Positions 43,064-59,901 of a stretch of DNA of 64,000 nucleotides are shown one piece after another. The notes beneath the pieces are model-generated. The model was not told where the DNA came from and did no database searches. It saw nothing but the letters and a program-made list of their open reading frames with translations. The stretch's first letter is position 1. Each line of letters opens with the position of its first letter. Origin of the DNA: an uncultured bacterium (lineage in GTDB: Bacteria > Oederibacteriota > PGYV01 > Palsa-1178); NCBI GenBank assembly GCA_937889595.1, contig CALAOR010000076.1, forward strand, positions 159,783 to 223,782, in the 5' to 3' direction. Made by a program: the position numbers and the translations under genes.

Positions 43064-46000
43064 TTGACATTATTAATCTTATTTACGTATTTTGTGTTTA
43101 TACTTGGAATGATGTTAAGCAAGGGCTGGTTGTTGGTTTGTTTGTCCGCGTGTTCAATCCTTCTTGTAAATATCGTCCGCAACAATAAAAAAATACTGGC
43201 TAACGTTGTGCCGTTATCTATCACGTTGATCATGCCGGTTTTAATAGGCTTATCCTGCTTTTTGTTCAATAAATCCCTTTATTATCCGGCCTTTTTTATA
43301 TTCCTGCCGGCAATGATCCTTTTTGCCGCCTATTTCTATTTGCGCAGGGTGCCGGCCGAGAAATTTATAAATATAGGAATCGTTTACAATGAACAAAGCA
43401 CGTCAACAATGGCTTTGAAAATAGGCTCCGCGGTTGCCGCCGGCGTAGCGGGATATTTTATGCTTGACCGGAAGATGTATATATTCTCTTATTTGTTATA
43501 TGCGGTATCTTTTATACTGATGGTAAGGATGTTTAAGATCAAGGGCCATACGCCCCTGGGTGAAGTTGAGCAGGCTGCTGTTGGCAGATCCGGCTCCGTC
43601 GGCATCACACAGGACGCAGGCGTTTTTTTTGCCGCGTTCATAACGGTCATACTCGCGTTTAAAGCTTATTCTTATGTGATGGCTTTTGACGTTAAAAATT
43701 TCCTTATATGCCTGGCGCTCGCGGCTGTATTCGCGGCATTCGCGGCTGACAGCTTTAAGGCCGCTGGTTTGGCCGCAAAAACTGAAAATGATAAACTGGT
43801 CAAGTTTGACTATGTTTTTCTGGCTGTGGTGTTTATTTATGCCCTGGTTATACGGTCCATAGACTGCCTCGGATTGCCGCCCGGACTGCAGTCCGATGAC
43901 ATAAACGGTTTGATAGGCGTTGGTTCGGTTAATTCCGGCAGAAGCACGCTTTATTTTACGGATTTACACATCAGCATACTCCCTTTATGGATGTCATCAG
44001 TCATTGGAAAGTTATTCGGCCTCATGCCGATTTACGCCGTTAAAGCCCCCCATATAATACTTGGCGCTTTGAATATACCCTTTATATACCTGCTTGCAAA
44101 AGAGCTGTACAACAGGCGGGTGGCTGTCGTTTCTTCTCTGATACTTTCAGTGTTTTTTATGCATGTGTTTTTCAGCAGGGCCATTCCGACCTGGATAGAG
44201 GTTCCGGCGTTCGGTACTGCCGCGTTTTATTTTTTCATAGTGGCATTGAAAAGGGGGAAACCGCTGCCCGCGGTGCTGGGCGGCATAATGCTGAGTTTAT
44301 CAATGTATTCCTACGACGCAGGCAAATTGGTGCCGATCGTGATATTATTTTATTTTGCAGCGATTATACTCTCGGATAATTCATACAGAAAATTCCTTAA
44401 TAACAGGACTTACCCGCTTTTATTGTTCGCGTCCGCGTCCTTTTTGGCATTTTATCCTATTTTGATTTACATACTGACCAAAGGATCCGAGTATTTCGCT
44501 TTGTTAAACCGCGTCAGTGTATTTCACTACCTTTCCGCGCAAACACCGGCTTTTGCCACGCTTGCCGGCCGCGCTGCTATATATGTCTGTTATCTTTTTA
44601 AAGGAAACGTATTCTCCGCGTCCATGCCCTCGGCAAATATCCTGGATCCGGTGGGCTCGGCTATGATGCTCGCGGGTTTTTGTGTGATCTTTTCAGGGTT
44701 AAGGCGCGGCAACAACATTTTTATGCTTGCCTGGCTTTTTGCGGGGTCATTAGGCGCGTTTTTTTCCTCGAGCGTCGATGGCTTTGAACCACCGAGGATA
44801 GTTTTAATTTATCCGGCGTTTGCCATACTGATGGCGCTGGGGCTCGACTACTTTGCGGCCTCGATAGACCTTGTCCTGAAAAAACAGGGAAAGATAATCA
44901 GCGCGGCAGTGGTATTAACGGCCCTGGTTTTTATAACTTTTTTCGGGCTTCATACATATTTTGTGCAATATAAAAATGACCCGGTTGTAAAAATGATCTT
45001 CAATGAATACGCCCTTGAAATCAAGAACTTTGTTTCATCCCACAAAAAGGACGATGTGATCGTGTCTGATTTTTATAATTCAAACAGGGGGGTAACGTTC
45101 GCTTACCTTATGTACGGCGAAAAAATGAATTTCAGGAACATGGATGTATCCCTGCTTGAATTGAATAAGATCTATAATAACAGGGGCCAGGGCGTAATTA
45201 TAATCGCCGAAGGCATGTACGCGGAGTATATGGATATTTTCAGGAAGTTTTTCCCCAACGCGGTGATCAAAACCCACTGGAATTATGACTGGTGGTTATT
45301 CGGTCCCGGCGAAAAGTACATGAACTTATATGGATGGAAAAACCCGGTTTTTACCCTGAATAAAGCCAGGACATTTCTGCACGACGTGTGCATAGACCCT
45401 GTGCGGCCCCAGGTTAATTTTGTAAGCTGTGAAATCCCGTATGGGGATATAAAGGACCTTTACGGTTTGAAAACAGTATATAGCAATAAAGGCCGCATAA
45501 TAAGGGAAATAATTACAACGGACATGACGATAATCAAGGACGCGTCGTTTGATTCAGCGGATTTTTCCGGCGGGATTTACGCGCCGGAAACGGGCTGGTA
45601 CGTTTTAACAGCGCAGGGCGCGGTAATGTCCGGACTGTCCGTCGGTGACGCGGATACGAAGAAAAACGACTGTGTTTACTTAAAACGCGGGCTAAACAGC
45701 ATTGGGTTTAAGCTGGATAATTTTCACGGCGCTGATGCGACGGTGTTCTGGGTGGCGCAGGGAGGCAGCGGGTTTGAAAAGCTGCCGGCTGGGAATGTTA
45801 TTGACATAACTCCGGAACCGGCCTTGAACAGTTATATTGAAAAGAACGGCAAAAAACTTTATGAATCCCTCGATTACGGCGTAAATAACAGGATATATTT
45901 TGCGGGGGCCAGGCTACCTGTCGCAGTTACCGCGGGTTTTGGCCATGATAAGTTTGACCGCATTTGGGACGGGTATATAACGATAGATAAAACGGGCTAT

Positions 46001-46249
46001 TATGAGATTATGGCCCAGACGCCCAATGATTGCACGGTAAAAGTCGATGAGTCCGCGGTTTTCAGCAAAAAGTCCGGCATTGAAAGATCCAATGAACGCT
46101 GGCTGTCAAAAGGGAAACATAAAATAAAAGTCAGGCAGGTTTATGAATACCTGCCGAACGTGGACTCGTATCATATATGGCTTTTGAAAAAGAAACGGGG
46201 AGATAACCTGCCGTCGGTTGTGCTTTACAGCCAACTTTCGGGAAAATAA
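43064..46249 (+). CDS. GT-C fold glycosyltransferase (PMT_2/ArnT-like) with N-terminal TM extension and two C-terminal PA14-like modules, paralog 1
   Basis: AAGGAG RBS with TTG start. First-loop acidic motif GLQSDD. Core YLLAKELYNRRVAVVSSLILSVFFMHVFFSRA. PA14-like FSGGIYAPETGWYVLTAQG and FDRIWDGYITIDKTGYYEIMAQTPNDCTVKVDESAVF. Confidence 0.7.
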   Translation: MTLLILFTYFVFILGMMLSKGWLLVCLSACSILLVNIVRNNKKILANVVPLSITLIMPVLIGLSCFLFNKSLYYPAFFIFLPAMILFAAYFYLRRVPAEKFINIGIVYNEQSTSTMALKIGSAVAAGVAGYFMLDRKMYIFSYLLYAVSFILMVRMFKIKGHTPLGEVEQAAVGRSGSVGITQDAGVFFAAFITVILAFKAYSYVMAFDVKNFLICLALAAVFAAFAADSFKAAGLAAKTENDKLVKFDYVFLAVVFIYALVIRSIDCLGLPPGLQSDDINGLIGVGSVNSGRSTLYFTDLHISILPLWMSSVIGKLFGLMPIYAVKAPHIILGALNIPFIYLLAKELYNRRVAVVSSLILSVFFMHVFFSRAIPTWIEVPAFGTAAFYFFIVALKRGKPLPAVLGGIMLSLSMYSYDAGKLVPIVILFYFAAIILSDNSYRKFLNNRTYPLLLFASASFLAFYPILIYILTKGSEYFALLNRVSVFHYLSAQTPAFATLAGRAAIYVCYLFKGNVFSASMPSANILDPVGSAMMLAGFCVIFSGLRRGNNIFMLAWLFAGSLGAFFSSSVDGFEPPRIVLIYPAFAILMALGLDYFAASIDLVLKKQGKIISAAVVLTALVFITFFGLHTYFVQYKNDPVVKMIFNEYALEIKNFVSSHKKDDVIVSDFYNSNRGVTFAYLMYGEKMNFRNMDVSLLELNKIYNNRGQGVIIIAEGMYAEYMDIFRKFFPNAVIKTHWNYDWWLFGPGEKYMNLYGWKNPVFTLNKARTFLHDVCIDPVRPQVNFVSCEIPYGDIKDLYGLKTVYSNKGRIIREIITTDMTIIKDASFDSADFSGGIYAPETGWYVLTAQGAVMSGLSVGDADTKKNDCVYLKRGLNSIGFKLDNFHGADATVFWVAQGGSGFEKLPAGNVIDITPEPALNSYIEKNGKKLYESLDYGVNNRIYFAGARLPVAVTAGFGHDKFDRIWDGYITIDKTGYYEIMAQTPNDCTVKVDESAVFSKKSGIERSNERWLSKGKHKIKVRQVYEYLPNVDSYHIWLLKKKRGDNLPSVVLYSQLSGK

Positions 46250-46871
46250 CCGGATACAGCCGGACAACTGCCCCGCATCGGAAGCGAAGAAAAACACCGT
46301 TGTTTTTGGAGGGTTTTCCGGCAGTATCAATTGTTTGTTTTACACCGGCTGATAATAAAATGAAATCCACAAATCCAAAAATTCCGTATTTAAAAATTAA
46401 AGGCCTCGCTAGCCTAAAACCCCGCGCGTCTTTGTTATTGATTATTACCACCGCCTTTGATATTATTATGATTTGGAAGTGTTTATGCTAAATCTTAAGT
46501 TCCTGGGGTTCTAAAATGACTGCTGTTGAAATAGCAAATAACAGGATAATAATATAGAAAATATGTTAGTATATAAAAAATTAATTTGCTATTAAAGATA
46601 TATCTTACTATATTATTTTTAATCCGGATCTCTTAAAAGGCGCGGAATGGAAGCGTATTTAATTAACTCTTGCAAGCCGCCGGAATAGAAAACATTTGAC
46701 GGAGTTCAACCGGCAGTTATGTCTTAAAATATGCTTGAGAGAGTGCGTACTGATTATGTTGGAAAGGGTCAAGGTGAAGACTTATTCTATGAGTTTTCAA
46801 TTGGTGATGAAGTTGAAACGATCACAGTATTATCATATAGGGACAGCTGAAAAACATGAGGGGTGTTTGTG

Positions 46872-49800
46872 ATGTTAAATAGAAAAGTACTCGCAATGGG
46901 TCTTGGGATCTTATGTTTTATATTTTTATTGTTTTTTTTAAAAAGCCATCCTTTCGATTTAACCGATATGTTTGTCGCTGCGAAAGCGGTTATTTTGTTT
47001 ACCGCTTCCTGGGTTTTCATAAAATATGGGACTGAGACCATGCAACACCCCGGAAAAGCTGAAAAAAAAGGAGTTTGGGAAATATTGTTGGAAGTCGCTG
47101 CGATAATCGGCCTGTTTGTTGCCGGAATCGTTCTAATAAATCATGGTTTTAAACTTTTTCACGGGTATGCTATAGAAAAGGCAATTTTGTTTTTTGCCGC
47201 CGGTTTAATTGTTTTCTTTGCGGCGTTCTATATTGCTGATCGCGTCGGGCGGCAACTGATACTTGCGAAACCCGTGTTTAAACCGCATAAACTTAAGTTT
47301 GTGGCCATTAAAATTATCATAGCTTTTATCTTGAGTTGTCTTGGGATCTTCTTCATGAAAACAAGCCACTCTTATCTGGCTCTCACATCTTTTGTTTTTG
47401 TGATTTTACAGCTTCTTCTTGTGTTTCAAAATCATATACCGTCGTTTTCCGTGGAAACAGTCATTGTCAGTCCTGTTAAACCAGGTGTTCCGGCTAAAAT
47501 GTTATCGATTGCGATGATCGTATCATCTATTTACTTTTATTATCTTACATATACTTCCATGCACTTGTACGATATTCAGGCGGCTATCCTGTGCTTATTT
47601 TGCGGCTCTCTTCTTTTTGGGTTGGCGCCGCACGGCGAAGAGTACCGCAAACCTGCCGGGCCGGATTCCACGACAAATAACGCGGATATATATTATGCTG
47701 TATTTGTTTTCATATTGGGACTTATTGTTTTTGGCTGGAAACTTATGGATATACCGCCAGGTTTGCACGGCGATGAAACCATTAATATTTTGATGGCAAA
47801 AAGGCTGAAATCCGGCGATATCCTGCCGTTGGTGCTTGAGGATTCGGCGTTTAATGGGTTGACACTTCTGCATACCTGGCTTCTTTCCCAGATAGGCAGG
47901 GTTTTCGGTATAACAATGGTTATGGCAAGGTGGGTTTCTGTTGCTGTCGGCGCGGCAGGGGTTTCTTTTGCTTATCTGTTGGCGAAAGAAATATTCAACA
48001 GACGTGTTGGTATCATCGTTTCGCTGTTGATGTCTACTTTTTTCATGATGGTGCTATACAGCAGGATGGCTCATTCGTGGATTTTTGTACCGTCGTTTGC
48101 GGTAGTGACGTATTTTTTCTTTTTTAAAGGTTTAAAAACCGGCAAAGCGGCTTTTTTTGTGGCGGCGGGAGTATTTTTAAGTTTGTCGATGACTGTTTAT
48201 AGCGCTGGAAAACCAACTTCTGTGGTCTTGTTCTTTTGGATGATACTCATGCTGGTAAGGAAGGAAACACGCATGCAGATACTGGCGAACTGGAAAAATA
48301 TAGCCTTGATGCTGATTGCCGCTCTATTGATGTTTCTGCCGGTAATTAATTATATTATACATAATCCGCATAAATATTTTCAACGTATGGGCGATGTCAC
48401 GCTGCTTCACGGTTTTCCTTCCAACTATCAGGAATTCAAGGCAATTGCGGATAACATATTGCGAAATATCCAGATGTTTATTACGGTATCGGCTGACGGG
48501 TATTGTCATAATATTCCAGGTAAGCCATTTTTTGATGAGTTTGTGTCTGTTGTTGCGATTGTGGGAGTGGGTTATTTATTATTCACATGGAAAAGAGAAT
48601 CCAGTTCATTTTTGATCTTGTGGATTTTTTTTGGATTGTTGCCGGGCTTTCTTTCGAAATTGGGTCCTGAAGACCCGTATCCCGCCAGAACGGTTTTGGC
48701 CATACCTGCTTTGATGATTCTTATTTCACTTGGGTTGGACAGGCTTGCGGCAAAGATCGAAAGTTTTTGGCCAAAATATCTGAAGATAGTTTCTGCGTTG
48801 ACTGTTTCATATTTTGTTGTGTGGTTTTCGTTCGCGAATTTAAGGGACTATTTTGTGGTTTTTACGAATGATCCCCACACAAAAGGTTATTACAGATCTA
48901 TTGATAAGCTGAACGCTGATTACATGACTGATAATAAGGATAAACAAATATTCATTTCACCTTATTTAAGCTGGAATTTCTATTACGGCATGTCAAAACT
49001 GTTGTCTACGCCGGAAATGGAAAAGTTTATTTCGGTAAATGATGTTTCGCTTTTTGAAGTGTATAAAGTCTATGACAAAACAGGAAGGGATACCACGCTT
49101 TTAGGCGAAGGCATATATTATAAAATGTTTCCCATCTATAGGGAATATTTTCCTAATGCCAGAATTACCACCGTCTGGGATGATTTGTTTTGGCAATTTG
49201 ATCATAATTCTAATATGAAATATTGTTATGAATGGGTAAATCCCGATAAGACGATAAATTTGAACCGTGGGTATTCATGGTTTTATTTGTATGATAATGA
49301 CGTGAAATTCGTGAAAATTGCCAGGGTTGAGATTCCGTCAGCCGATCAAAAAATGGAATTTTCTCTGGCGGGTGTTTTTAAGTCGCATGGAAAAACTGTA
49401 GAAAAAAGTTCTGTGTATTTTCCTTTAGATTGCAGCGGTCAGGATTTTGACGATTTAAGCTTGAGCGGGTTGTTGGATGTGCCTGAATACGGAAGGTATG
49501 AGTTTCAAATTGATGGGGCTCGCGGCGCAATTTATATTGACGGTAAACCTGCGGAAGGGACCAGAGAGTTATATAAAGGAATACACAGAATAAAGTTTGT
49601 TTTTAAAGAAAAAACGAACAAGTTCATATCTGTTAAATGGAAAATGTCTGGTTCGGAGGTTTTTTCTGATCTTGATCGCCGGTATCTGATTAATTCTGAC
49701 AAGGTGTTTGGTTTGTTGGCGGATTATAAGCTTGGTGGCAGGACTTTTTACAGGCAGCTTGAACCGGTCGTTGACTATAGGCTTTATTATTATAAACACA

Positions 49801-50153
49801 GACCGGCGGCCGCGTATATCCCGGCGGATGTTACGGATAAAAACGCATATGACTTGGAGTGGAACGGGCAAATAAAATTAAGTTCAAGAGACACTTACAG
49901 TTTCAGGCTTCACACATTGTATGATGCTGTAATTATGATTGATAACAAGGTGGTATTTAAAAAAATAAAAGATGTGGAAAAGGTAATCCCGACAGTGTTT
50001 GACCAGGGAATTAAAAAGATCAGGATAATTTCACACTATAGATATATCTCAAATTACTGGGATCCGGGTTCAACAATAAGGTTTATGTACAAAAAAGGTG
50101 ATAAAAATGAATTTGGGCCCGTTACATATGACATGCTCTCGCCCGGAATTTAA
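46872..50153 (+). CDS. GT-C fold glycosyltransferase with PA14-like C-terminal modules, paralog 2
   Basis: ATG 46872 follows GAGGGG (the ORF track starts at GTG 46863). GLHGDETINIL loop. YLLAKEIFNRRVGIIVSLLMSTFFMMVLYSRM. PA14-like LLDVPEYGRYEFQIDGARGAIYIDG and YDLEWNGQIKLSSRDTYSFRLHTLYDAVIMIDNKVVF. Confidence 0.7.
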   Translation: MLNRKVLAMGLGILCFIFLLFFLKSHPFDLTDMFVAAKAVILFTASWVFIKYGTETMQHPGKAEKKGVWEILLEVAAIIGLFVAGIVLINHGFKLFHGYAIEKAILFFAAGLIVFFAAFYIADRVGRQLILAKPVFKPHKLKFVAIKIIIAFILSCLGIFFMKTSHSYLALTSFVFVILQLLLVFQNHIPSFSVETVIVSPVKPGVPAKMLSIAMIVSSIYFYYLTYTSMHLYDIQAAILCLFCGSLLFGLAPHGEEYRKPAGPDSTTNNADIYYAVFVFILGLIVFGWKLMDIPPGLHGDETINILMAKRLKSGDILPLVLEDSAFNGLTLLHTWLLSQIGRVFGITMVMARWVSVAVGAAGVSFAYLLAKEIFNRRVGIIVSLLMSTFFMMVLYSRMAHSWIFVPSFAVVTYFFFFKGLKTGKAAFFVAAGVFLSLSMTVYSAGKPTSVVLFFWMILMLVRKETRMQILANWKNIALMLIAALLMFLPVINYIIHNPHKYFQRMGDVTLLHGFPSNYQEFKAIADNILRNIQMFITVSADGYCHNIPGKPFFDEFVSVVAIVGVGYLLFTWKRESSSFLILWIFFGLLPGFLSKLGPEDPYPARTVLAIPALMILISLGLDRLAAKIESFWPKYLKIVSALTVSYFVVWFSFANLRDYFVVFTNDPHTKGYYRSIDKLNADYMTDNKDKQIFISPYLSWNFYYGMSKLLSTPEMEKFISVNDVSLFEVYKVYDKTGRDTTLLGEGIYYKMFPIYREYFPNARITTVWDDLFWQFDHNSNMKYCYEWVNPDKTINLNRGYSWFYLYDNDVKFVKIARVEIPSADQKMEFSLAGVFKSHGKTVEKSSVYFPLDCSGQDFDDLSLSGLLDVPEYGRYEFQIDGARGAIYIDGKPAEGTRELYKGIHRIKFVFKEKTNKFISVKWKMSGSEVFSDLDRRYLINSDKVFGLLADYKLGGRTFYRQLEPVVDYRLYYYKHRPAAAYIPADVTDKNAYDLEWNGQIKLSSRDTYSFRLHTLYDAVIMIDNKVVFKKIKDVEKVIPTVFDQGIKKIRIISHYRYISNYWDPGSTIRFMYKKGDKNEFGPVTYDMLSPGI

Positions 50154-50450: not shown

Positions 50451-51557
50451 TTGACGGCAAAGGAAGCAGAGTTTCTATACTTGGCTGCCTCAAATTGTTC
50501 GAAAAATGGGGCGATCGTTGAAATAGGATCCTGGCGGGGAAAATCCACTGTTTTACTTGCGCAGGGGGCCTTAAGCGGACAAAAACCCACAATATATGCT
50601 GTTGATCCACATACAGGCGGCTTGGAAAAGCGTAATATTATCATGCTGACTTTTTATGAGTTTAAAAATAATATAAAAAAAGCAGGCGCTGATGAAATAG
50701 TGGTCCCGATTGTTAAAAGATCGGAGGACGCCGTGAAAGGGTGGAATATTCCGGTGGAGGTAATTTTCATTGACGGCAGCCACGAATTTGAGGATGTAGA
50801 AAAGGATTTCACACTGTGGGATCCGCATGTGATTGAAGGCGGCTTGATCATATTTCATGATACCAATGCCTGGCTGCAGAACGGGCCTTACAGGGCAATT
50901 AAAAAACACATTTTGAAGAGCAGGCATTTTAAGGATGCTGGTACTGTTGATTCGATTTTCTATGCGCGGAAGTGCGTTGAAAACACACAGACGGACCTTG
51001 AAAATATGGCCCGCATCGAAAGGTCGCTGCGCCACGTTGATGTTGTTAACTTTTTTTATGCGCCTATAAAAAAATTAATGTGCTCATTGGGTTTTAATGT
51101 TGTCGATATGAGCTATGCCGTTTACTCTCCGTGGACAGACCTGTCCACTTTCAATCCGTTGGCCGGTTTTTTTGTAAGAATAATGCGCAGACTGAAATTT
51201 AACAGCTACATCAAGGACGAGCAGGGCTGTTTTAAGGAATATTATAAAGCCGGCGGTTTGAAAAGAGAAATTCGTCATGCCGGGCATACTCTCCACGGCG
51301 TTTCGAAACTTTTCTATGAAAATGGGAACGAACAGGCGGAAATACCGTATAATAAAGGTTATATTGACGGTTGCTTAAAGGAATATTATGACAATGGAAA
51401 ATTGCGGTCCGAGGAATTTTATGTAAACGGGGAACGCGACGGATTGTCGAAAGTATATTTTGAGAACGGCGTGCTTATGAAAGAAAAAAGATATTCGAAA
51501 AATCGAATGGTATCCGCGGCTGTTTACGATGAAAATGGAAAAGCGAGGAAAAAATAA
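50451..51557 (+). CDS. class I SAM-dependent methyltransferase fused to MORN/YwqK-type repeats
   Basis: IVEIGSWRGKST and FIDGSHEFEDV..D form the Methyltransf_24-like core. The C-terminus carries repeated ..YY.NGK....Y.NG..DG. units. Family-like sequence (IQGWL) continues upstream of the TTG 50451 start with no ATG/GTG/TTG available, so the true start is uncertain. Confidence 0.65.
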   Translation: MTAKEAEFLYLAASNCSKNGAIVEIGSWRGKSTVLLAQGALSGQKPTIYAVDPHTGGLEKRNIIMLTFYEFKNNIKKAGADEIVVPIVKRSEDAVKGWNIPVEVIFIDGSHEFEDVEKDFTLWDPHVIEGGLIIFHDTNAWLQNGPYRAIKKHILKSRHFKDAGTVDSIFYARKCVENTQTDLENMARIERSLRHVDVVNFFYAPIKKLMCSLGFNVVDMSYAVYSPWTDLSTFNPLAGFFVRIMRRLKFNSYIKDEQGCFKEYYKAGGLKREIRHAGHTLHGVSKLFYENGNEQAEIPYNKGYIDGCLKEYYDNGKLRSEEFYVNGERDGLSKVYFENGVLMKEKRYSKNRMVSAAVYDENGKARKK

Positions 51558-51558
51558 T

Positions 51559-54276
51559 ATGATTAAAAAAGTTGCTTTGTTTCTTCTTTTGGCGTTATGG
51601 ATAACCGGACAGTATTTTATTGCGGTCAAACACTTATACGAGGGTTTATTCATTAGTGTGGCGGCAATCGGCATAGGTTCCGTTATTATTTTGGTGAAAC
51701 GTTCGTACGATAACTATGTTCCTTACGCGGCGCTTTTAGGCATTATAGCCGCTTTTACCGCTTCCTCTGTCGTAAGACATAATCCGCAGGTGGGTTTGTT
51801 GTTATTCGTGTTGTCAGGCCTGCTTATATTTATCGCAAAGCCAGAGGGAGAAAAACTGACGGTTTTGGGTGATGTGCCCGAAAAATCTTACCCGATGGAA
51901 AAATGGGAACCGTATTTTTTGACAATTCTGCTTATTTTTTCCGGTATTATCCGTTTTTATGACCTGCTTAATCTGCATCAGGGAGTTTATGGCCATGATT
52001 CCATACTTTTTTCGAATGTAGAAACACTGATGGCTTCTCCATTGTATATTCCGCACATCGGGGGGGGGTCAGATTGGCCAACTCTTGTTTATTATCAGGC
52101 GGCTTTTTTTGGGAAACTGTTCGGTTGGAACATCGGTTCAATGCGGATGGAATCCGCTTGTTGGGGGTTGTTGGATATTGCCGCGCTGTACTTTTTGATA
52201 AGAATGCTGGCTTCGCCCTGGGCGGCCGCGATCATGACTGCGCTTTTTGCCGTTAGTGTTCCTCACTTGAATTTTTCAAGGACGTTTTTTCCAGGCACTG
52301 TTGTTATGCTGGCGCCTATACTGGGTTTTTCTTTGCTGCTTACCGCGGTGAAATTAGACAAATGGAATTGGTTCATGTTCGCCGGATTTGCCGCCGGGTT
52401 GAGTCTTCACGGGTATGTCCCCGGCAGGATCGTTTTCCTGATGTTCCTGTTATGGTTTATATGGATATGGCTGTTTTACAGGAAAAAATTCCCTAAAATA
52501 AAAAATGTCATTATATTTTGGATAGCTTTTATAGCGATAGCTTCACCAGTGATATGGTTCGCCATCACAAATCCTGAACAATATAACGGATATGTGAACA
52601 GCGTCAATCCCAATAAAAGCGCTGGAATAATGGGATATATAACCATGTTTATTAACCAGATAGGCTCTTACGCGGGAATGTTTCACGTAAAAGGGGCTTG
52701 GGATACTCTTTTTCATGAGCCGTTCGAGCCTATATTGGACTGGTTCACCGGGGCTCTGTTCCCGATGGGTCTTTTTATGTGCCTGCTGATGTTCTGGAAA
52801 CCCATTCCGGTGTTTATTTTCATCTACTTTATCGGAGGGATGGCGCCGGCCATGCTCGGCGGTGGCTGTTCTCCGCAACCAGATGTCCGCAGGATGCTCT
52901 TGGCACTGCCGGTAATATATATATTCGGTGGAATTGCTTTTGAAAGGCTGCGGCTGGTGGCCCGGAATAATTTTGGCGGTAAAGGGTCCGGGGTGTCGTT
53001 CTGGGTCTTTGTTTTTACTTTCCTGCTGGCACTGCCTTTTGGCGCAAATGAAATCAATACTTTCCTGCGCCAGCAAAAGGATCCGATCACGCTGGCCATT
53101 ACCGAACATTACAGCTTTCTCGCGGGAAAGGAAATACAAAAGTACGCCGGAGATGAGATTAAACTGATGAACCTTTACGATTTGACGAACAATTCATGCG
53201 TGCTGCTTCCGCGCAATGTTAAATACACCGTGGTAAAATGGATAGACGATATGATGGTCCTGAATCCGGCAAAGGATAATGTGTTATTACTTGAACCTGT
53301 CTATGAATCCATGATCCCCATGCTGAAAAGAATGTTTCCGGACTGTGATGTAAAGATATTCAGGGAAGAAAGAACAGAACGGATCACAAGGTTTGATAAT
53401 AATCCGGCCGTAACGGAAACGATGAAGTATACCGATCCTTACAATAAATTTGTCTATCTTGTCAGGGTTTTTATTCCAAAAGAAGATTCTGAAAAGTTCA
53501 CAAATGAACTTTTTGTCGCCGGACCGGGCGGGCAGGAAAGGAAATCCGTGTATCTTCCCGAGTTTGCTTCCGTATATTCGGGACGCCAGGTGACTATCTC
53601 GGGAGGCCTTATATTGAAACAGGAAGGCGACCTTGTAAAATTTAAAATGGATTGGGGAGGTTTTACCCTGCTAATTGACGGGAAACAGGCTAATTTTGGA
53701 TCGCAGCGTCAGCTTGAAGGAGGCACACATTACTTTGTTTTAAGGGGCACGGTACCACGGGGCGCCAAAACCGGCCTGCCCTTGAGTATATTGCGGGGGG
53801 AAATTGATCTTAAGGCTGAAGGACGGGTTGTGGCCATTGCCCCTTCGGCCGGGGTTGTCATCACTTTTTCACAGGGTAAACAACTGCTTGCGAACGCACC
53901 GGATTCAATAACGAGGCGTTCCATTGCTCCCATACGCCGTTTCTATCACACCATGGATTATTACATGCCATTTCCTGTAACCGTAAAAGGGTATATTTCT
54001 TTCCCTGAAAAAGGTGAGTATGAGTTTATGGCGCCGGGTTATATTTATAACCGGATACTAATTGACGGCAAAGTCGTATTTGACAACTATGAATACGGCA
54101 CTGTTAAGAATAAAGCATCAATATGGCTGGAAAAAAACCGGAAGGTTACGTTTGTTGTTGAAAATATGGTTAATCAATCCGATGACAGACTCAGGGGTAT
54201 TATTGTTTATTACAGGGAAAAAGGCAGAGTCCCCTGGAATATTCTCTCGCCTGATTTTATAGATCAATTAAAATAA
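51559..54276 (+). CDS. GT-C fold glycosyltransferase with PA14-like C-terminal modules, paralog 3
   Basis: ATG 51559 follows GAGGAA (the ORF track starts at 51529, overlapping the previous gene). GVYGHDSILF loop and multi-TM core. PA14-like VKGYISFPEKGEYEFMAPGYIYNRILIDGKVVFD. A G9 tract lies at 52060-52068. Confidence 0.7.
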   Translation: MIKKVALFLLLALWITGQYFIAVKHLYEGLFISVAAIGIGSVIILVKRSYDNYVPYAALLGIIAAFTASSVVRHNPQVGLLLFVLSGLLIFIAKPEGEKLTVLGDVPEKSYPMEKWEPYFLTILLIFSGIIRFYDLLNLHQGVYGHDSILFSNVETLMASPLYIPHIGGGSDWPTLVYYQAAFFGKLFGWNIGSMRMESACWGLLDIAALYFLIRMLASPWAAAIMTALFAVSVPHLNFSRTFFPGTVVMLAPILGFSLLLTAVKLDKWNWFMFAGFAAGLSLHGYVPGRIVFLMFLLWFIWIWLFYRKKFPKIKNVIIFWIAFIAIASPVIWFAITNPEQYNGYVNSVNPNKSAGIMGYITMFINQIGSYAGMFHVKGAWDTLFHEPFEPILDWFTGALFPMGLFMCLLMFWKPIPVFIFIYFIGGMAPAMLGGGCSPQPDVRRMLLALPVIYIFGGIAFERLRLVARNNFGGKGSGVSFWVFVFTFLLALPFGANEINTFLRQQKDPITLAITEHYSFLAGKEIQKYAGDEIKLMNLYDLTNNSCVLLPRNVKYTVVKWIDDMMVLNPAKDNVLLLEPVYESMIPMLKRMFPDCDVKIFREERTERITRFDNNPAVTETMKYTDPYNKFVYLVRVFIPKEDSEKFTNELFVAGPGGQERKSVYLPEFASVYSGRQVTISGGLILKQEGDLVKFKMDWGGFTLLIDGKQANFGSQRQLEGGTHYFVLRGTVPRGAKTGLPLSILRGEIDLKAEGRVVAIAPSAGVVITFSQGKQLLANAPDSITRRSIAPIRRFYHTMDYYMPFPVTVKGYISFPEKGEYEFMAPGYIYNRILIDGKVVFDNYEYGTVKNKASIWLEKNRKVTFVVENMVNQSDDRLRGIIVYYREKGRVPWNILSPDFIDQLK

Positions 54277-54365: not shown

Positions 54366-54629
54366 ATGTTCATAAAAAAGAATGATTTATTCCTTGTCAG
54401 CGTAGTGTTTTGTTTTATTTCGATTTTGGGTTTGACCCTATTAATAATGGCCCGGCAGGATTATTTGGCCGCTATTATAAGGTTTGGCGGCCCTGTCGTC
54501 GCTTTATTCTTGGCTATTGCCGGGCAAACGGTTGTAAAGGGCAATCCAGGTGCGGGGGTGATCTTATATGCGCTTGCCGCGGCATGCGGCAGGAAAGTGG
54601 GATGTTTAAATGAAACTATCAAGGTTTAA
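54366..54629 (+). CDS. small hypothetical membrane protein (2 TM)
   Basis: 87 aa with two hydrophobic helices and no recognisable family. It overlaps the next gene by 20 nt. Coding status is uncertain. Confidence 0.3.
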   Translation: MFIKKNDLFLVSVVFCFISILGLTLLIMARQDYLAAIIRFGGPVVALFLAIAGQTVVKGNPGAGVILYALAAACGRKVGCLNETIKV

Positions 54630-55269
54630 TTTAAAGATGCAATGGTTTAAAACAGGGATAAGGGAGCTTGAATCGGTAGATTGGGCTTATTTTCTTGATG
54701 CGTACGGAAAGTTGGTGAAAAAAACTGACAGGGTACTTGAGATTGGAGCTTCTCATATAGCCAGAACGAAGCAACTGGCCGCAAGCTGCGCTGAACTTAC
54801 CGGACTCGAAATAATGCCTGAGAGAAAACCGGATGATTTTGGCAATGTCAGGTTTAAAACAGGCAATTGGGAAAAGCTTTCCGGAATTTTCGAGCCGGAG
54901 AGTTTTGATATGGTGTTGTCCAGCCATGTTATTGAACATGTGGAACATGACGTTATGGCTATGAAAGAATTGTATAAAACGCTGAAGCCGGGCGGGGCCG
55001 CAATAATCACGACCCCCAACATCATGCGCATGGCGGCCGTTATTGAAAAACTGTTCAAAGGCCCGAAAATATTTCCCTGGTTCGAGCATATGCGGGAGTA
55101 TGATGAGCCGGGTCTGATCCGGTTAATTAAAGAAGCCGGATTTATAAAATATGAAATTATCCCGATCGCTTTTGGCATAACAGGGTGGAAACTGTTTATT
55201 TACATTGAACCTGTCCCGCAAAAATTAAGGAAATACTGCTGTTTTTGGATGGTTAAGTTGTTCAAATAG
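54610..55269 (+). CDS. SAM-dependent methyltransferase (type 11-like)
   Basis: VLEIGAS (motif I), MVLSSHVIEHVEHD and LKPGGAAIITTPN. Confidence 0.75.
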   Translation: MKLSRFNLKMQWFKTGIRELESVDWAYFLDAYGKLVKKTDRVLEIGASHIARTKQLAASCAELTGLEIMPERKPDDFGNVRFKTGNWEKLSGIFEPESFDMVLSSHVIEHVEHDVMAMKELYKTLKPGGAAIITTPNIMRMAAVIEKLFKGPKIFPWFEHMREYDEPGLIRLIKEAGFIKYEIIPIAFGITGWKLFIYIEPVPQKLRKYCCFWMVKLFK

Positions 55270-55341: not shown

Positions 55342-56124
55342 GTGAAAAAGTTCAATAATCCGATTAAAGATTTTGCATATTTTTTGTATCGGTGGATCAA
55401 TCCTGTTTTTGATCCGGTTAAATTAGCCCTCTTTATACCCAGGTATGCCGTTTTTTTTGCTAGCTGGATGAGATATTCACTGATGAGGGGGTCTGAAAAA
55501 AGCGGCCTTATCGATTCTTTTCCAAGCCTTTACGATAACCTTAAAAAAACGCCTTTTGATTCGCACTACTTTTATCAGGATATATGGGCCTTTAAAAAGG
55601 TAAAAATATCAGGCGCGCCAGCCCATGTTGATGTGGGATCCAGGATTGATTATGTAGGCTTTCTTACCGCAATCTGCAATGTCACATTCATAGATATCAG
55701 GCCGCTCCTGGCTGATCTGGATAATTATAAATCTATTGCCGGTAGCATATTGAAAATGCCTTATGAGGATAATTCAGTTTCATCCATATCCTGCCTGCAC
55801 GTCGCCGAACACATAGGCCTTGGAAGATACGGAGATCCGCTGGATCCCTTCGGTACGAAAAAGGCGTGCACGGAGTTGAAGCGGGTATTGGCTGTCGGTG
55901 GGAGCATCTATTTTTCTCTGCCGGTAGGCAGACCCAGGCTTTGTTTTAATTCACACAGAATTCATTCGCCCGGACGCATATTGGAATACTTTGAAGGACT
56001 TGAACTGGTTGAACTTTCCGGAATTAATGATGACGGCAGATTTATAACGGACATAAAGTATGATGTTCTTGAAAATTCTGACTATGCGTGCGGTCTTTTT
56101 CATTTTAAGAAGCCTGTAAAATAG
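55342..56124 (+). CDS. DUF268-like methyltransferase-fold protein
   Basis: GGAG RBS with GTG start. VDVGS, SCLHVAEHIGLGRYGDPLDPFG and LAVGGSIYFSLPVG resemble the DUF268 signature as recalled. Confidence 0.6.
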   Translation: MKKFNNPIKDFAYFLYRWINPVFDPVKLALFIPRYAVFFASWMRYSLMRGSEKSGLIDSFPSLYDNLKKTPFDSHYFYQDIWAFKKVKISGAPAHVDVGSRIDYVGFLTAICNVTFIDIRPLLADLDNYKSIAGSILKMPYEDNSVSSISCLHVAEHIGLGRYGDPLDPFGTKKACTELKRVLAVGGSIYFSLPVGRPRLCFNSHRIHSPGRILEYFEGLELVELSGINDDGRFITDIKYDVLENSDYACGLFHFKKPVK

Positions 56125-56403: not shown

Positions 56404-59400
56404 ATGAATTATAATCATATAAAAAATATTCTGATCGGTATAGCCATGATTTTACTGATTTTGGGTCAATTTTTTATAATAATTGCGCCAAACCAAATGT
56501 TTCTGGGCATAATTTTAAATATTATTTGCGCGTTATTATTCGCGCTTTCTTTTACCGGAAAATTCACTGTTATATTGGATTTTTTTGGAAGACTTTTTGC
56601 GCCGAAGCCATTGCATATTCCTGTTGTAGTTAAGGCAGGCAACCACAAGAAGGATAAGGCAGGGATCCCGGACAATCTGCAGGATTCTCACCATAACCTG
56701 CCAAGGATCCCGTCTCTTAATCTATACGGATGGCTGCAGAAATTAGGAAATGACGGTATAAAGTTTTTTCTTCCCAAGTGGATCTTTTTTGTATTTTCGG
56801 TGTTTTTATTTATAACTGCACAGTTTTTATTTATTGGCGGAAAGCTAATACCTGCCATAGCGTTACTGGGAGTCATTATCATTACTCTTGTTTTTGTATT
56901 CAGGCTGAAAGCGCCGGGATTGGATGTGAATATAAATTTTGGCAACGGCTTAAAAGTGCTGTCCATGTTGTCAGGTCTGGTTTTAATAGCTTTTGGATGG
57001 TTCCTGCTTATAAATCAAAAAATTACAGTCCAGGAATGGGGAGTAGCCTTAACAGTCCCAGGTTGTATACTAGCTTTTTTAGGGCTGCCGCAACGGTTGG
57101 TGTTCGATAACCATGAGACTGCGTCAAAAAGTGATATACTTTTCGAAAAATCCGGATTTTTTAATAATTATCTTATAAAAGTGGTTCTGATAATACTTTC
57201 TTTTGTTTCCATTAAAATAGGTTACAGTATAATGATGAGTCCGGAATACAATATGTATTCAATGTTGTTTTACGGTTTGGCTATAATGTTCGTATTCTTC
57301 AGCTTTCCTCTCATTAATTTTGCCGAAAAACCAGTTGATAATAAATATTTGGATATGGTAAAACTGGCGTTTGCCGTAGTCGCAATTTTTATCGCTTATT
57401 TGGGGCAGCGTGATTTTGTTGCGGGAAAGGTAAATGTCGCTATAATCAAATATATTATTGCTGCTGCTATATTTATTATTGCTTTTCCGGTTTATTCGTC
57501 CAAACTCGGGGAGGAAAAGGAACCGTTCCCCATTAAAATAGAAGTGATGTTCCTGCTTGTTATTATGATCGTGGGTATATTTCTCAGGTTGTATGAAATT
57601 GATTTGAGACCGTTTGGCCTTGAAAATGATGAGGCAGGCGGTTACACATACAGGCTTGACGCCCACGGCGCGCCAACAGTGCCTTTAAATGTTGGAAATT
57701 TCGGCATTGCGGTTCACATAGTGCAGTTTTTTAGCGCCATTATCGGTGAGTTAAATAGGACCGGTATCAAAATGCTTGGCGTATCTGTCGGATTGATCTC
57801 CATACCGATAATGTATTTTTTTATAAGGTCGCTTTTGAACCCCCGTTCGGCAATATTTGCGACTACAATATTTACTTTTTTAAGATGGAACCTATATTAT
57901 TCCAGGGCTGGGCACGGGGCTGTATTGTCAAATGCCGTGGAAATATTGGCTTTTTTCTTTCTTTTTAAGGCTATTGAAACCAGGAAGTCTCTTATTTGGT
58001 TCTTGGCCGGGCTATGTGTGGGACTCACCTGGCACGGTGTTATGACGGAGTTCTTGCTTATAATTCCAGTTGTTCTTTATTTTGTCATTAGTTCGTTCGC
58101 GCATAAGGGATTTCTTAAATCTAATTTAATAGGTATATTTGCATTTCTTTTCGGCTTTTGGATCTTTGGTTCCATGATCGTCCACAATTTTCCTATGAAT
58201 AAAACAATTTACTTTTCAAGGGTGGCGGAAGTTTCTGTGTTCAGCAAGGATCCCAACGCTCCAAGCAAAAATCCGGCAAAGGGTATAGTGGAAAACACCA
58301 AACTTGTGCTGCTTATGTTTAACCATCAAGGTGATTCAAGGCAGCGTAATTCCGGCGGCAATCCTTTCGATCCAACTATAGATTTCACAAGCTCGATTTT
58401 TTATGCTTTGGGATTTCTATATGTTATATATTACAGCAAATACTATATGTTTTTTATACTGGCCATGGCATTTTTATCCCAGGCTGCGGGATCCATTTTT
58501 TCTATTGAAGCGCCTTCCGCGATGAGGGCCATAGGAACCATGATACCAATGTTTTTCCTTATTGCCGTAATTTTTGACAAAATATGGCTTGCATTCAGAA
58601 AAGTATTTGGAAAAAAAATGGAGTTTATTTATTTCCCGCTAATACTGGCGATTTTTCTCGTGCCAATAATAAAGGATAACTATTATCAGTATTTTGGAAG
58701 ATGGATAGGGGGATTGGATGAGTTGACCACGGCAACCGGGCTTTACAGTAAAAGCCTGGGAAACAAGTGGCGGGTTATGCTGTATACCAATTTGTATTAT
58801 CCCGGCCATCCGCCTTTTAAAATAAACCGTTCAGAAAAGGCTAATACAGCTTCAAGGCTGACAACCGCCTTGACCTACCTGAAACGTGTTGATACGGATA
58901 ATTTCGCGTTGTTATTTCACTATGATACATGGCAAAATCTTGACAGCATTAAAAAACATTATTTTCCCGAATCCAAGTTGGAAATTGTTGACCATAAATG
59001 GTTCAATAAAAAACTTAAGCCAGGTGAAGGCTTAGGTGGCTTTGCAAAGGCCGTACTTGTGACAAATGAAGAATTAAAAAAGAAAATGGGATTAACTGGA
59101 AACTATTCGTTTGGCGGAGGCCCGTTCCCGAACGAAGAACCGGAATTTAAAGTGCGGGATTCTTCAATGGTGCCGTATGTGGCCACATGGAGCGGCGTTT
59201 TCCTGGCTCCATATTACGGCAGATTCAAATTTGAAAACAACGGTACGGCCGACTTTACGCTTAATATTGACTATAAAAATATACCGAAAGGTTCGGATGT
59301 GCTGCTTGCAGAAGGGTTCCATAAAATTAAGATCACTGCTTCGAGGAAAAAGGGCTCGGATACTTTGTCGTTAAATGTCAGGGCAATCGGTCTGACCGAC

Positions 59401-59901
59401 ACATCGTTCAGGGGCACAGAAATGATAAAACTTGACAGCAAGTATCTGTATAACTTTGGAATAATAGGATTGCACGGCTATTATATCAACGGTAATAGTT
59501 TTGATCAGACCAATAAGGATTCCGAGATAATAGATTCCAACATACAGTTTGATGGGGCGGTCTATACAACTTCGGCTTATTGGAACGGAACAATAAACAT
59601 GCCGGACTCGGGCCAATACTTTATTACTGCATCATGTAACGGATATGTAAGGATAGTCGTTGACGGAAACAGCTACTGGGAGCAAATTAATGACCGTTCC
59701 ACGGAATATGCCGAAAAATATTTCAGCAACAAGCCCATGAAACATGTCCTATCTTTCAATTTGTCCAAAGGAAAGCACAGGATAACCATATATAATCTCA
59801 ATTCAAATATAATGCATTTGATGTGGAATAAAGTGGGGCAACCGTCAGAACCTGTTCCTGTAGACGCGCTTGAGCCTGATTACGACATATCAAAAATTTA
59901 A
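56404..59901 (+). CDS. GT-C fold glycosyltransferase with long N-terminal TM extension and PA14-like C-terminal modules, paralog 4
   Basis: AGGAGG RBS. GLENDEAGGY loop. YFFIRSLLNPRSAIFATTIFTFLRWNLYYSRA core. PA14-like ATWSGVFLAPYYGRFKFENNG and YWNGTINMPDSGQYFITASCNGYVRIVVDGNSYW. Confidence 0.7.
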   Translation: MNYNHIKNILIGIAMILLILGQFFIIIAPNQMFLGIILNIICALLFALSFTGKFTVILDFFGRLFAPKPLHIPVVVKAGNHKKDKAGIPDNLQDSHHNLPRIPSLNLYGWLQKLGNDGIKFFLPKWIFFVFSVFLFITAQFLFIGGKLIPAIALLGVIIITLVFVFRLKAPGLDVNINFGNGLKVLSMLSGLVLIAFGWFLLINQKITVQEWGVALTVPGCILAFLGLPQRLVFDNHETASKSDILFEKSGFFNNYLIKVVLIILSFVSIKIGYSIMMSPEYNMYSMLFYGLAIMFVFFSFPLINFAEKPVDNKYLDMVKLAFAVVAIFIAYLGQRDFVAGKVNVAIIKYIIAAAIFIIAFPVYSSKLGEEKEPFPIKIEVMFLLVIMIVGIFLRLYEIDLRPFGLENDEAGGYTYRLDAHGAPTVPLNVGNFGIAVHIVQFFSAIIGELNRTGIKMLGVSVGLISIPIMYFFIRSLLNPRSAIFATTIFTFLRWNLYYSRAGHGAVLSNAVEILAFFFLFKAIETRKSLIWFLAGLCVGLTWHGVMTEFLLIIPVVLYFVISSFAHKGFLKSNLIGIFAFLFGFWIFGSMIVHNFPMNKTIYFSRVAEVSVFSKDPNAPSKNPAKGIVENTKLVLLMFNHQGDSRQRNSGGNPFDPTIDFTSSIFYALGFLYVIYYSKYYMFFILAMAFLSQAAGSIFSIEAPSAMRAIGTMIPMFFLIAVIFDKIWLAFRKVFGKKMEFIYFPLILAIFLVPIIKDNYYQYFGRWIGGLDELTTATGLYSKSLGNKWRVMLYTNLYYPGHPPFKINRSEKANTASRLTTALTYLKRVDTDNFALLFHYDTWQNLDSIKKHYFPESKLEIVDHKWFNKKLKPGEGLGGFAKAVLVTNEELKKKMGLTGNYSFGGGPFPNEEPEFKVRDSSMVPYVATWSGVFLAPYYGRFKFENNGTADFTLNIDYKNIPKGSDVLLAEGFHKIKITASRKKGSDTLSLNVRAIGLTDTSFRGTEMIKLDSKYLYNFGIIGLHGYYINGNSFDQTNKDSEIIDSNIQFDGAVYTTSAYWNGTINMPDSGQYFITASCNGYVRIVVDGNSYWEQINDRSTEYAEKYFSNKPMKHVLSFNLSKGKHRITIYNLNSNIMHLMWNKVGQPSEPVPVDALEPDYDISKI

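Follow-up and report, generated by a model that had tools for sequence, protein, structure and literature searches.

The GT-C/PA14 genes and their domain organization

The DNA analysed here, referred to as the window, is a 64,000-nt stretch of contig CALAOR010000076.1 from an uncultured bacterium. The region under study, nt 43064–59901, contains four long open reading frames (ORFs) on the plus strand, designated G1–G4, which encode GT-C/PMT_2 transferases. The four products share a common plan: a variable N-terminal extension with multiple transmembrane (TM) segments is followed by a PMT_2/GT-C core, an alpha/beta domain and two tandem modules of the PA14 fold. They belong to an uncharacterised, widespread subfamily of the PMT_2 (GT39/ArnT-like) GT-C glycosyltransferases.

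The gene G1 (43064–46249) encodes a protein of 1061 amino acids (aa) with Pfam matches to PMT_2 (E 7.8e-10) and PA14 (E 1.6e-4). Its N-terminal extension (aa 1–244), core (aa 245–630) and alpha/beta domain (aa 631–792) precede the PA14-like module 1 at aa 795–909 (nt 45446–45790) and module 2 at aa 919–1060 (nt 45818–46243), and the core carries the acidic motif QSDD at aa 276–279 (nt 43889–43900). The product of G2 (46863–50153) is 1096 aa long (1085 aa in the public gene call) and was assigned by Pfam, an AlphaFold2 (AF2) model and Foldseek. It consists of the extension (aa 1–271), the core (aa 272–660) with the motif HGDE at aa 302–305 (nt 47766–47777), the alpha/beta domain (aa 661–827), module 1 (aa 828–945, nt 49344–49697) and module 2 (aa 946–1096, nt 49698–50150). 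G3 (51529–54276) encodes the shortest of the proteins, with 915 aa (PMT_2 E 2e-9, PA14 E 9e-5); here the extension covers aa 1–125, the core aa 126–515 with YGHD at aa 154–157 (nt 51988–51999), the alpha/beta domain approximately aa 516–676, module 1 approximately aa 677–760 and module 2 aa 774–910 (nt 53848–54258). The longest product, of 1165 aa, is encoded by G4 (56404–59901; PMT_2 E 2.5e-9, PA14 E 2.6e-3). Its extension (aa 1–375) is followed by the core (aa 376–757) with ENDE at aa 407–410 (nt 57622–57633), a soluble segment (aa 758–900), module 1 at approximately aa 905–1000 and module 2 at aa 1021–1159 (nt 59464–59880).

The original prediction, made from the letters of the sequence, had described four paralogous ORFs with acidic motifs in the first loop, a conserved soluble segment of the form (F/Y)FP(N/D/E)(A/C/S) and two PA14 modules, from which four strings were quoted. 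The ORFs are present on the plus strand at the lengths given above and their paralogy is far beyond chance; the four acidic motifs and the four quoted strings were likewise all found. The soluble segment reads FFPNA, YFPNA and YFPES in three of the copies, as described, but MFPDC in G3, so that the first position is not restricted to F or Y.

The assignment of the core and of the tail was assessed with Pfam profiles, whose gathering cut-offs are 26.1 bits for PMT_2 (PF13231) and 24 bits for PA14 (PF07691). All four proteins exceed the PMT_2 cut-off (38.0–40.1 bits). PA14 is found at the same relative position in all four and scores below its cut-off (16.6–22.7 bits). The PMT profile PF02366 gave no match at E ≤ 1 in any of G1–G4, and the Pfam scan detected no MIR domain in them; the related protein P0183, which resembles G3, matches PF02366 with 29.4 bits, above the cut-off of 22.7 bits. 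A tail profile was built from 12 aligned C-terminal tails, including those of G1–G4 themselves. All 12 tails match PA14, with a best E of 3e-11, and several relatives already carry a precomputed PF07691 annotation. When the tail profile was compared with the PDB, the PA14 dyad of RsgI3 (6qe7, E 6e-17) and the entry 6qdi (E 1e-15) were found, followed by the PA14 insert of a GH31 alpha-xylosidase (7kmp, E 7e-11) and the anthrax protective antigen (PA; E 7e-7). By hhalign, module 1, the shorter of the two, is a homologue of module 2 (probability 98.5%, E 3e-15).

Independent profiles were rebuilt from G2 orthologues only, with G1, G3 and G4 excluded. The core profile recovers G1, G3 and G4 with E values of 9e-70, 3e-21 and 3e-15, and the module 2 profile recovers them with 2e-21, 2e-6 and 2e-5, respectively. 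The module 1 profile matches G1 (3e-9) and G4 (4e-7) and gives a weak match to G3, while the linker profile matches G1 (5e-28) and stays below significance for G4. Conservation is highest in the core, with 48–67% identity among G2 orthologues, and lowest in the N-terminal extension, with 23–38%. The acidic motifs are located just after the first TM helix of the core (TM1), in the first outer loop (EL1). In an alignment of 13 sequences, at least 90% retain the aspartate corresponding to D304 of G2, and all four copies have it.

AF2 models were obtained for G2 (pLDDT 81, pTM 0.78) and G3 (pLDDT 70, pTM 0.70), and G1 and G4 were judged by their match to the G2-family core profile. Both models show the same order of parts, with N-terminal helical hairpins, a GT-C core, an alpha/beta domain past the last TM helix and two beta-sandwich modules. 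The models were used as Foldseek queries against the PDB. The best matches of the G2 model are the PA14 dyads of RsgI3/RsgI4 (E 2e-10), followed by AglB, STT3, Pmt4 and ArnT. The best match of the G3 model is the dyad 6qe7 (E 1.7e-7, 259–299 columns), followed by OST, ArnT and ALG12. The alignments to the RsgI dyads cover approximately 260–310 columns and span both PA14 modules. Module 1 of G3 is weak by sequence, yet the G3 model aligns to the complete RsgI3 dyad. Among the GT-C enzymes, ArnT (5ezm) was matched with a TMt of 0.51–0.52 and Pmt4 (9i5k) with 0.52–0.54, at a Foldseek probability of 1.00; ALG9/ALG12, STT3/PglB/AglB, AftA, AftD and EmbA/B/C were also found, as were the PA14 domain of MpAFP, Vip1 and the anthrax PA for the tail. 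A sequence search of the TM core against the PDB returned PA14 entries and no GT-C enzyme, and for this reason the GT-C assignment rests on Pfam and structure prediction. Profile searches, models and Foldseek agree on a PMT_2/GT-C core with two PA14 modules, as had been originally predicted.

Membrane topology and the N-terminal extension

Additional TM helices ahead of the core had been expected in all four proteins, and this is borne out. The models place eight helices ahead of core TM1 in G2 and four in G3, and hydropathy points to approximately seven to eight hydrophobic segments in G1 and nine to ten in G4. No Pfam family matches the extension. Homology between extensions was detected for the pair G1–G2 alone (E 2e-5, independent profile), and a weak internal repeat is seen within the extension of G2 (E 0.004). 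A shared origin of the extensions of all four copies was rejected, as only G1 matches G2 and the hhalign probability for G3 versus G2 is 0.2%. The possibility that the extension is a fused GtrA-like flippase was also rejected (hhalign probability 0.1–0.2%).

With the N-terminus placed in the cytoplasm, the loops of G2 and G3 that are rich in lysine and arginine (K/R) all come to lie on the cytoplasmic side. The long loops poor in K/R are external, and EL1, which carries the acidic motif, is one of them. From this positive-inside pattern and the helix count, the tail is placed in the periplasm. In solved GT-C enzymes such as ArnT and AglB/PglB the C-terminal soluble domain is likewise located outside the membrane. 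In the relative P0187, a S-adenosylmethionine (SAM)-dependent methyltransferase domain stands at the N-terminus ahead of the multi-TM extension; as this domain must be cytoplasmic, it supports the N-in topology. An NHL propeller is fused after PA14 in the relative P0014, and in the window a separate NHL protein is anchored with its N-terminus inside. The periplasmic location of the PA14 modules, which was part of the original prediction, is therefore consistently predicted.

The PA14 modules lack the calcium-binding motif of PA14 lectins

Sugar binding by PA14 lectins and RsgI sensors requires an Asp-cis-Asp (DcisD) motif on strand beta5, which holds a calcium ion (PMC6852018). The dyads of RsgI3/RsgI4 bind pectin or xylan, and the RsgI3 module without DcisD binds neither calcium nor pectin (PMC6852018). 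When aligned to RsgI3, the second modules of G1–G4 have LY, PN, YI and NG at the DcisD positions, respectively. The first modules of G2 and G4 have AR and TA, and the first modules of G1 and G3 were left unaligned by the profile. DcisD or a conservative variant of it occurs in none of 60 first modules and in one of 60 second modules of GT-C fusions, while DD is present in 192 of 335 PA14 modules (57%) of non-GT-C proteins from the same search. By these sequence criteria the dyad is a distinct PA14 subfamily. Because the motif is missing, a role of the modules as classical lectins, and with it the earlier suggestion that PA14 holds an already glycosylated acceptor in this manner, appears doubtful. 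For the same reason, it is more likely that the dyad positions or recognizes the acceptor than that it acts as a classical lectin. The underlying idea, that a domain of lectin fold confers processivity or acceptor recognition on a GT-C enzyme, is established for the MIR domain of PMT enzymes (PMC7759382, PMC12586580) and for the carbohydrate-binding module (CBM) of EmbC (PMC3044687).

Paralogy and distribution of the architecture

The products of G1 and G2 share 27% identity over approximately 1000 aa (blastp, E 2e-94). The remaining pairs share 20–22% identity over 600–860 aa with E values from 7e-9 to 2e-15, except that the alignment of G1 with G4 extends over only 244 aa. Relatives of all four copies were found in related loci of other genomes (L001–L013) and among related proteins (designated P with a four-digit number). 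Orthologues of G2 share 39–58% identity with it (43–58% in L001–L006). Those of G3 share 46% in L001 and 30–35% in P0180–P0183, those of G4 46–48% in L006 and P0113, and those of G1 approximately 31% in P0046, P0047 and P0049. Since each copy has its own orthologues elsewhere and the copies are only 20–27% identical, sequence comparison identifies G1–G4 as old paralogues and not as the product of a recent amplification; the fourfold amplification that had been proposed is not upheld.

A word-index protein search gave few homologues (17–24 matches). An alignment of the divergent tails contained no stretch with enough conservation for a scan of the GTDB genome collection; scanning it with a single protein gave no match, and scanning it with an alignment of close orthologues gave six loci. 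The spread of the family became visible only in an exhaustive search of 1.8 billion cluster representatives with the tail profile, which yielded 4758 proteins at E < 1e-3, of which 1216 have E < 1e-10. The top 150 representatives (50%-identity clusters) were examined for their architecture. A GT-C core with two PA14 modules is present in 80 of these 150, and 78 of the 80 also have the alpha/beta domain; most of these fusions have 130–290 residues ahead of the core. The rest of the 150 are mainly proteins with multiple PA14 repeats. The named relatives, annotated as "glycosyltransferase family 39 protein", derive from metagenome-assembled genomes (MAGs) of Candidatus Goldbacteria, Anaerolineae, Ardenticatenaceae and Chloroflexia. 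The family 39 label rests on PMT_2, and several of these proteins are already annotated with PF13231 and PF07691. The nearest genomes, also MAGs, carry the labels candidate division FCPU426, Candidatus Goldiibacteriota and "uncultured Spirochaetia". The literature searches returned no paper on a GT-C/PA14 fusion, and most results for "PA14" concerned the Pseudomonas strain. The earlier statement that no characterised fusion is known thus stands as far as papers are concerned, but the architecture itself is common in metagenomes and is already annotated as PMT_2 plus PA14.

In several related loci the genes of this family are also clustered. In L008 two PMT_2+PA14 genes are arranged in tandem, and in L010 (Anaerolineae) a PMT_2+NHL gene adjoins a PMT_2+PA14 gene. 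In L011 (JGI metagenome contig Ga0335078_10000078, 1–22730), five PMT_2 genes (885–1182 aa), two NHL-propeller genes and two methyltransferase genes are interleaved, and genes for an ArnC-like GT2, an ArnA-type formyltransferase and a DegT aminotransferase are also present. The L011 array is a larger version of the gene arrangement in the window.

Candidate acceptor proteins

The upstream part of the window contains four plus-strand genes for secreted proteins with threonine-rich regions, identified by Pfam and composition. All four products are giant proteins. That of 5737–9390 has a FlgD_ig/T9SS-like (type IX secretion system) tail, and its (Thr-X)n region (aa 644–907) contains 44% Thr, with 86% of the residues in T-X runs of at least three. 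In the products of 9762–13634 and 14886–19001 the region covers aa 684–979 and aa 695–1064, respectively, and in that of 22998–25535, a FlgD_ig protein, it covers aa 232–525. The four regions are 264–370 residues long and strictly alternating, with 44–45% Thr and 86–89% of the residues in T-X runs, and X is P, F, Y, A or S. FlgD_ig/T9SS-like C-terminal domains are found on all four proteins. These proteins are considered candidate acceptors of the GT-C enzymes.

Their orthologues in L001–L004 have the same regions and stand close to the orthologue of G2. In these four loci the gene order is a T-rich protein, a DUF11 protein, a T-rich protein, GT2 and the G2 orthologue. Between the orthologue of 22998–25535 and that of G2 there is only a 230-aa GT2 gene on the minus strand. 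L001, L002 and L004 carry the orthologue of 14886–19001 upstream of that of G2. Among the giant surface-protein genes of the window, a small ORF at 19512–20057 has a weak match to an IS200-like Y1 transposase (Pfam Y1_Tnp, E 1.6e-5). The start of the window carries a gene for an ATPase of the type II secretion/type IV pilus kind (714–2672; T2SSE and MshEN), followed by a gene for a secreted Ig-like (Invasin_D3/Big_1) protein with a FlgD_ig tail (2683–4431).

Neighbouring genes for putative donor synthesis and partner proteins

Directly upstream of G1, the plus-strand gene 41872–42825 encodes a GT2 enzyme of the PgfS/ArnC/GtrB type, a putative polyprenyl-phosphate-sugar synthase (NCBIfam PgfS E 3e-52, ArnC E 2e-33), with two C-terminal TM segments at aa 240–258 and 274–292. 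Its PgfS score is 177.7 bits, versus an NCBIfam equivalog cut-off of 500 bits. The adjoining plus-strand gene 40979–41896 encodes an NAD-dependent sugar epimerase/dehydratase (Pfam Epimerase E 2e-34, NCBIfam GalE E 1.6e-17) and takes the position that PgfE has in the Pgf operon. The gene 39198–40895 (plus strand) encodes a fifth multi-TM protein without the PA14 tail, possibly another GT-C enzyme. It has 11 hydrophobic segments, a marginal Pfam match to GT87 (E 8e-6, 26.2 bits versus a cut-off of 25 bits) and no NCBIfam match. A small membrane protein of the GtrA family, a putative polyprenyl-phosphate-sugar flippase, is encoded at 33536–33949 on the plus strand (Pfam GtrA_DPMS_TM E 5.7e-25). 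Two soluble GT2 enzymes are encoded on the minus strand. The one at 26976–27785 is of the AglJ/PpgS/Dol-P-hexose-synthase type (NCBIfam AglJ E 2e-42, PpgS E 2e-18), and an orthologue adjoins the G2 orthologue in L001–L004 (72–86% identity, with synteny); the other, at 29424–30116, is a second copy with 80% identity to the first. The three components of a GT2/GtrA/GT-C system (GT2 41872–42825, GtrA and the GT-C genes) are accordingly all present, spread over approximately 26 kb of one strand and not as a tight three-gene operon. The same set of donor genes stands beside the relatives in L001, L011 and L013.

Sugar-nucleotide genes form a cluster at 30374–42825. This part of the window also contains genes for an acetolactate-synthase-like thiamine pyrophosphate (TPP) enzyme and an HMGL-like aldolase (33949–37371) and for an AroB-related "sugar phosphate phospholyase (cyclizing)" (38085–39128), which scores above its NCBIfam cut-off (TIGR04425, 422 bits). 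The combination of an AroB-like cyclase, a TPP enzyme and an aldolase may point to a sugar donor of an unusual type, either branched or carbocyclic. Two B12-binding radical SAM enzymes with 60% identity to each other, whose best match is HpnJ, are encoded at 25556–26932 (minus strand) and 27850–29226 (plus strand). Together with the soluble GT2 genes they form a locally duplicated pair (25556–30116), and in the relatives one such radical SAM gene stands directly after the G2 orthologue.

The accessory genes that follow the GT-C genes are those named in the original prediction. G2 is followed by the plus-strand gene 50451–51557, encoding a Methyltransf_24 plus MORN_2 protein (Pfam E 5e-25 and 2e-16). 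G3 is followed by two plus-strand methyltransferase genes, 54610–55269, encoding a class I SAM methyltransferase (Pfam Methyltransf_11 E 8e-13), and 55342–56124, encoding a DUF268/Methyltransf_11 protein (Pfam E 1.9e-14). None of the three methyltransferases has a TM segment, and they are regarded as cytoplasmic. In the relatives P0187 and P0190, a SAM methyltransferase domain (aa 51–200) precedes the multi-TM extension, an arrangement that echoes the methyltransferase genes after G2 and G3. A Rosetta-stone link between the methyltransferase 54610–55269 and the methyltransferase+PMT_2 fusion P0187 was rejected, as only generic class I similarity was found (E 0.002). G4 is followed by the plus-strand gene 59928–60905 for a membrane-anchored NHL beta-propeller (phmmer against the PDB: NHL domains of TRIM3/TRIM2, E 2.5e-14), with a K/R-rich N-terminus and one TM segment (aa 31–49) before the propeller. 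The same succession of a GT-C gene and an NHL gene is seen in L001, L002, L011 and L013, and in P0014 the propeller is fused directly after PMT_2 and PA14. NHL is thus a recurrent partner of these enzymes.

No tRNA genes were found in the window, the Rfam scan detected no RNA family, and the promoter/terminator scan gave no usable operon boundaries. The 614-bp gap between G1 and G2 (46250–46862) contains no long ORF; it has several promoter-like matches (for example at 46526–46553) and no Rfam match.

Proposed function of the GT-C/PA14 enzymes

GT-C enzymes carry out most of the glycosylation that takes place outside membranes. The basis of their acceptor choice is a subject of current work, for example on the PMT MIR domain and the Emb/AftD CBMs. 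We propose, with about even confidence, that G1–G4 are the periplasmic GT-C enzymes of a three-component system that O-glycosylates the (Thr-X)n linkers in the manner of the PMT and Pgf systems, with the PA14 dyad positioning the acceptor. The products of the three GT2 genes would load sugars onto polyprenyl phosphate on the cytoplasmic face of the membrane. The cytoplasmic methyltransferases and the products of the upstream sugar-nucleotide genes may diversify the donors, and the GtrA protein would flip the lipid-linked sugar. Each GT-C paralogue would then move one kind of sugar onto the acceptor at the outer side of the membrane, the putative acceptors being the 264–370-residue linkers of the giant secreted proteins with FlgD_ig tails. 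The dyad may read or position the acceptor as the MIR domain does in PMT enzymes, perhaps jointly with the membrane-anchored NHL propeller. A division of labour among the four copies is plausible. There is precedent for this scheme: Pgf clusters encode their own Ser/Thr-rich adhesin substrates, which are glycosylated by GT2, epimerase and GT-C enzymes (PMC12041528), the MIR domain of Pmt4 binds S/T-X-S/T (PMC12586580), and the MIR domain influences PMT processivity via a mannose-binding site (PMC7759382).

Several observations weigh against glycosylation of the linkers. Proteins with (T-X)n regions stand beside the GT-C genes only in the closest lineage, L001–L004, and are absent from L005–L011 and L013 (the edge protein of L012 is cut off and could not be judged). 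In the window itself, approximately 17 kb of sugar-biosynthesis genes lie between these proteins and the GT-C genes, and the GT2 matches are all under the NCBIfam equivalog cut-offs. The Foldseek scores do not separate PMT-like enzymes, with a protein acceptor, from ArnT/Emb-like enzymes, with a lipid or glycan acceptor. The surrounding cluster, with its dehydratase, aminotransferase, TPP enzyme, AroB-like cyclase and B12-radical SAM enzymes, fits a surface polysaccharide equally well. Some PA14 domains bind ligands without DcisD, and the dyad may therefore still bind glycans.

These points bring in the main alternative, in which the acceptor of the four enzymes is a glycan or is lipid-linked (O-antigen, the core of lipopolysaccharide, capsule or another envelope polymer), each copy adding a different side-chain sugar, and the dyad binds the growing polymer via a non-canonical site, like the CBMs of EmbC and AftD. 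We regard it as less likely than glycosylation of the linkers, but as a real possibility. The large sugar-nucleotide cluster at 30374–42825, the ArnA-formyltransferase, ArnB and ArnC-like genes beside the five PMT_2 genes of L011, the Foldseek matches to ArnT, AftA, AftD and EmbA/B/C and the absence of (T-X)n proteins from the surroundings of most loci of the wider family all speak for it. The C-terminal domain of EmbC is a lectin-like CBM (PMC3044687), and three-component systems often decorate polysaccharides (PMC11127046). A glycan or lipid-linked acceptor, however, does not explain why the G2 orthologue consistently adjoins (T-X)n proteins in four genomes. The sugar site of the dyad is missing, and no Wzx/Wzy/Wzz, ABC-transporter or initiating phosphoglycosyltransferase was found among the ORFs scanned, which were part of those in the window. 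With such an acceptor the system would be a routine addition to the known three-component systems.

The explanation given in the original prediction, that the PA14 modules are true lectins which hold a glycosylated acceptor for processive or ordered extension by the four enzymes, is unlikely. The PA14 fold is confirmed by the tail profile and Foldseek, the nearest solved relatives, RsgI3/RsgI4, bind polysaccharides, and B4GALNT3, a GT-A enzyme, has a PA14 domain that acts as a lectin (PMC13018970); the effect of the MIR mannose-binding site on processivity also points in this direction. But every aligned module of the window lacks DcisD, as do 119 of the 120 modules in GT-C fusions, the RsgI3 module without it is unable to bind calcium or pectin (PMC6852018), and module 1 is shortened. 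It is more improbable still that some of the copies are degenerate and inactive, serving as scaffolds or hetero-oligomer partners in the manner of Pmt1–Pmt2 or EmbA–EmbB. PMT and Emb enzymes do act as dimers (PMC12586580, PMC7341804), the copies have diverged to 20–27% identity, and the EL1 motif varies among them (SDD, GDE, GHD, NDE). The conservation of the aspartate aligned with D304 across the family and in all four copies, the maintenance of each paralogue as an orthologue group in other genomes and the high conservation of the core argue against loss of activity.

O-glycosylation of the (Thr-X)n linkers remains our preferred explanation, and it can be extended in a more speculative form that we hold with considerable reservation. 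The PA14 dyad may have been re-purposed to read the (Thr-X)n peptide and, together with the NHL propeller, may feed the linkers past four GT-C enzymes that build a multi-sugar, methylated O-glycan coat in candidate phyla (FCPU426/Goldiibacteriota, with variant forms in Chloroflexota). If this is true, the window encodes a PMT-like multi-enzyme line for protein O-glycosylation in these phyla. The family itself is a large unstudied one, with at least 80 clusters at 50% identity among the best 150 representatives, from several phyla, and with an acceptor-side PA14 pair that has no lectin calcium site. The closest lineage offers a concrete candidate enzyme–substrate pair for bacterial protein O-glycosylation in uncultured phyla, and the family may be a source of enzymes for glycoengineering.

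Comparison with known glycosylation systems

A parallel in mechanism is provided by the PMT/POMT enzymes (CAZy GT39). They have the GT-C fold and an acidic residue in the first luminal loop in common with G1–G4, and Pmt4 is matched by the models with a TMt of 0.52–0.54. PMT enzymes use a polyprenyl-phosphate-sugar donor and Ser/Thr-rich disordered acceptors; a donor of this kind is suggested for G1–G4 by the gene context, and such acceptors are represented here by candidates. Both families also have an accessory domain of lectin fold on the outer side; that of the PMT enzymes, MIR, recognises S/T-X-S/T and affects processivity (PMC12586580, PMC7759382). The accessory domain of G1–G4 is a C-terminal PA14 dyad of beta-sandwich modules, whereas MIR is a beta-trefoil inserted in a loop. 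In addition, G1–G4 match PMT_2 only and not PF02366, and they have extra N-terminal TM hairpins.

In gene organization the window resembles the Pgf system of Streptococcus mutans (PgfS, PgfE, PgfM1 and PgfM2). A GT2 gene, whose best NCBIfam match is PgfS (E 3e-52), and an adjacent epimerase gene are followed by several GT-C genes, and Thr-rich surface proteins are encoded in the same region (PMC12041528). The Pgf GT-C enzymes, however, are YfhO-family proteins without PA14 modules, while those of the window belong to PMT_2, and the host of the window is a candidate-phylum bacterium with relatives among FCPU426 and Goldiibacteriota MAGs. As the GT2 enzyme of the window, at 177.7 bits, is far under the PgfS equivalog cut-off of 500 bits, the resemblance is functional and organisational only. 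The Gtr/Arn three-component systems consist of a GT2 synthase, a GtrA-family flippase and a GT-C enzyme, all of which have counterparts in the window (PMC11127046). GtrC and ArnT have neither a PA14 tail nor an N-terminal extension, and the window contains four to five GT-C genes for three GT2 genes.

The mycobacterial EmbA/B/C and AftD enzymes are also large GT-C proteins with a C-terminal periplasmic CBM-like beta-sandwich and with paralogues encoded side by side (PMC3044687, PMC7341804). They differ in their family (GT53), in the fold of the CBMs, which is not PA14, and in their arabinan acceptors, and the TMt is only 0.20–0.25. The RsgI3/RsgI4 dyads (6qe7, 6qdi) are the best match to the tail in both sequence and structure and are likewise tandem PA14 pairs outside the membrane. 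RsgI proteins are clostridial anti-sigma factors whose dyads serve as polysaccharide sensors with DcisD (PMC6852018), whereas the GT-C dyads lack DcisD and have a shorter first module. The mammalian B4GALNT3 is a soluble GT-A enzyme that uses a nucleotide-sugar donor, and its only PA14 domain is a true lectin. It nevertheless provides a further example of a PA14 domain fused to a glycosyltransferase, where it serves substrate selection (PMC13018970, PMC11254600).

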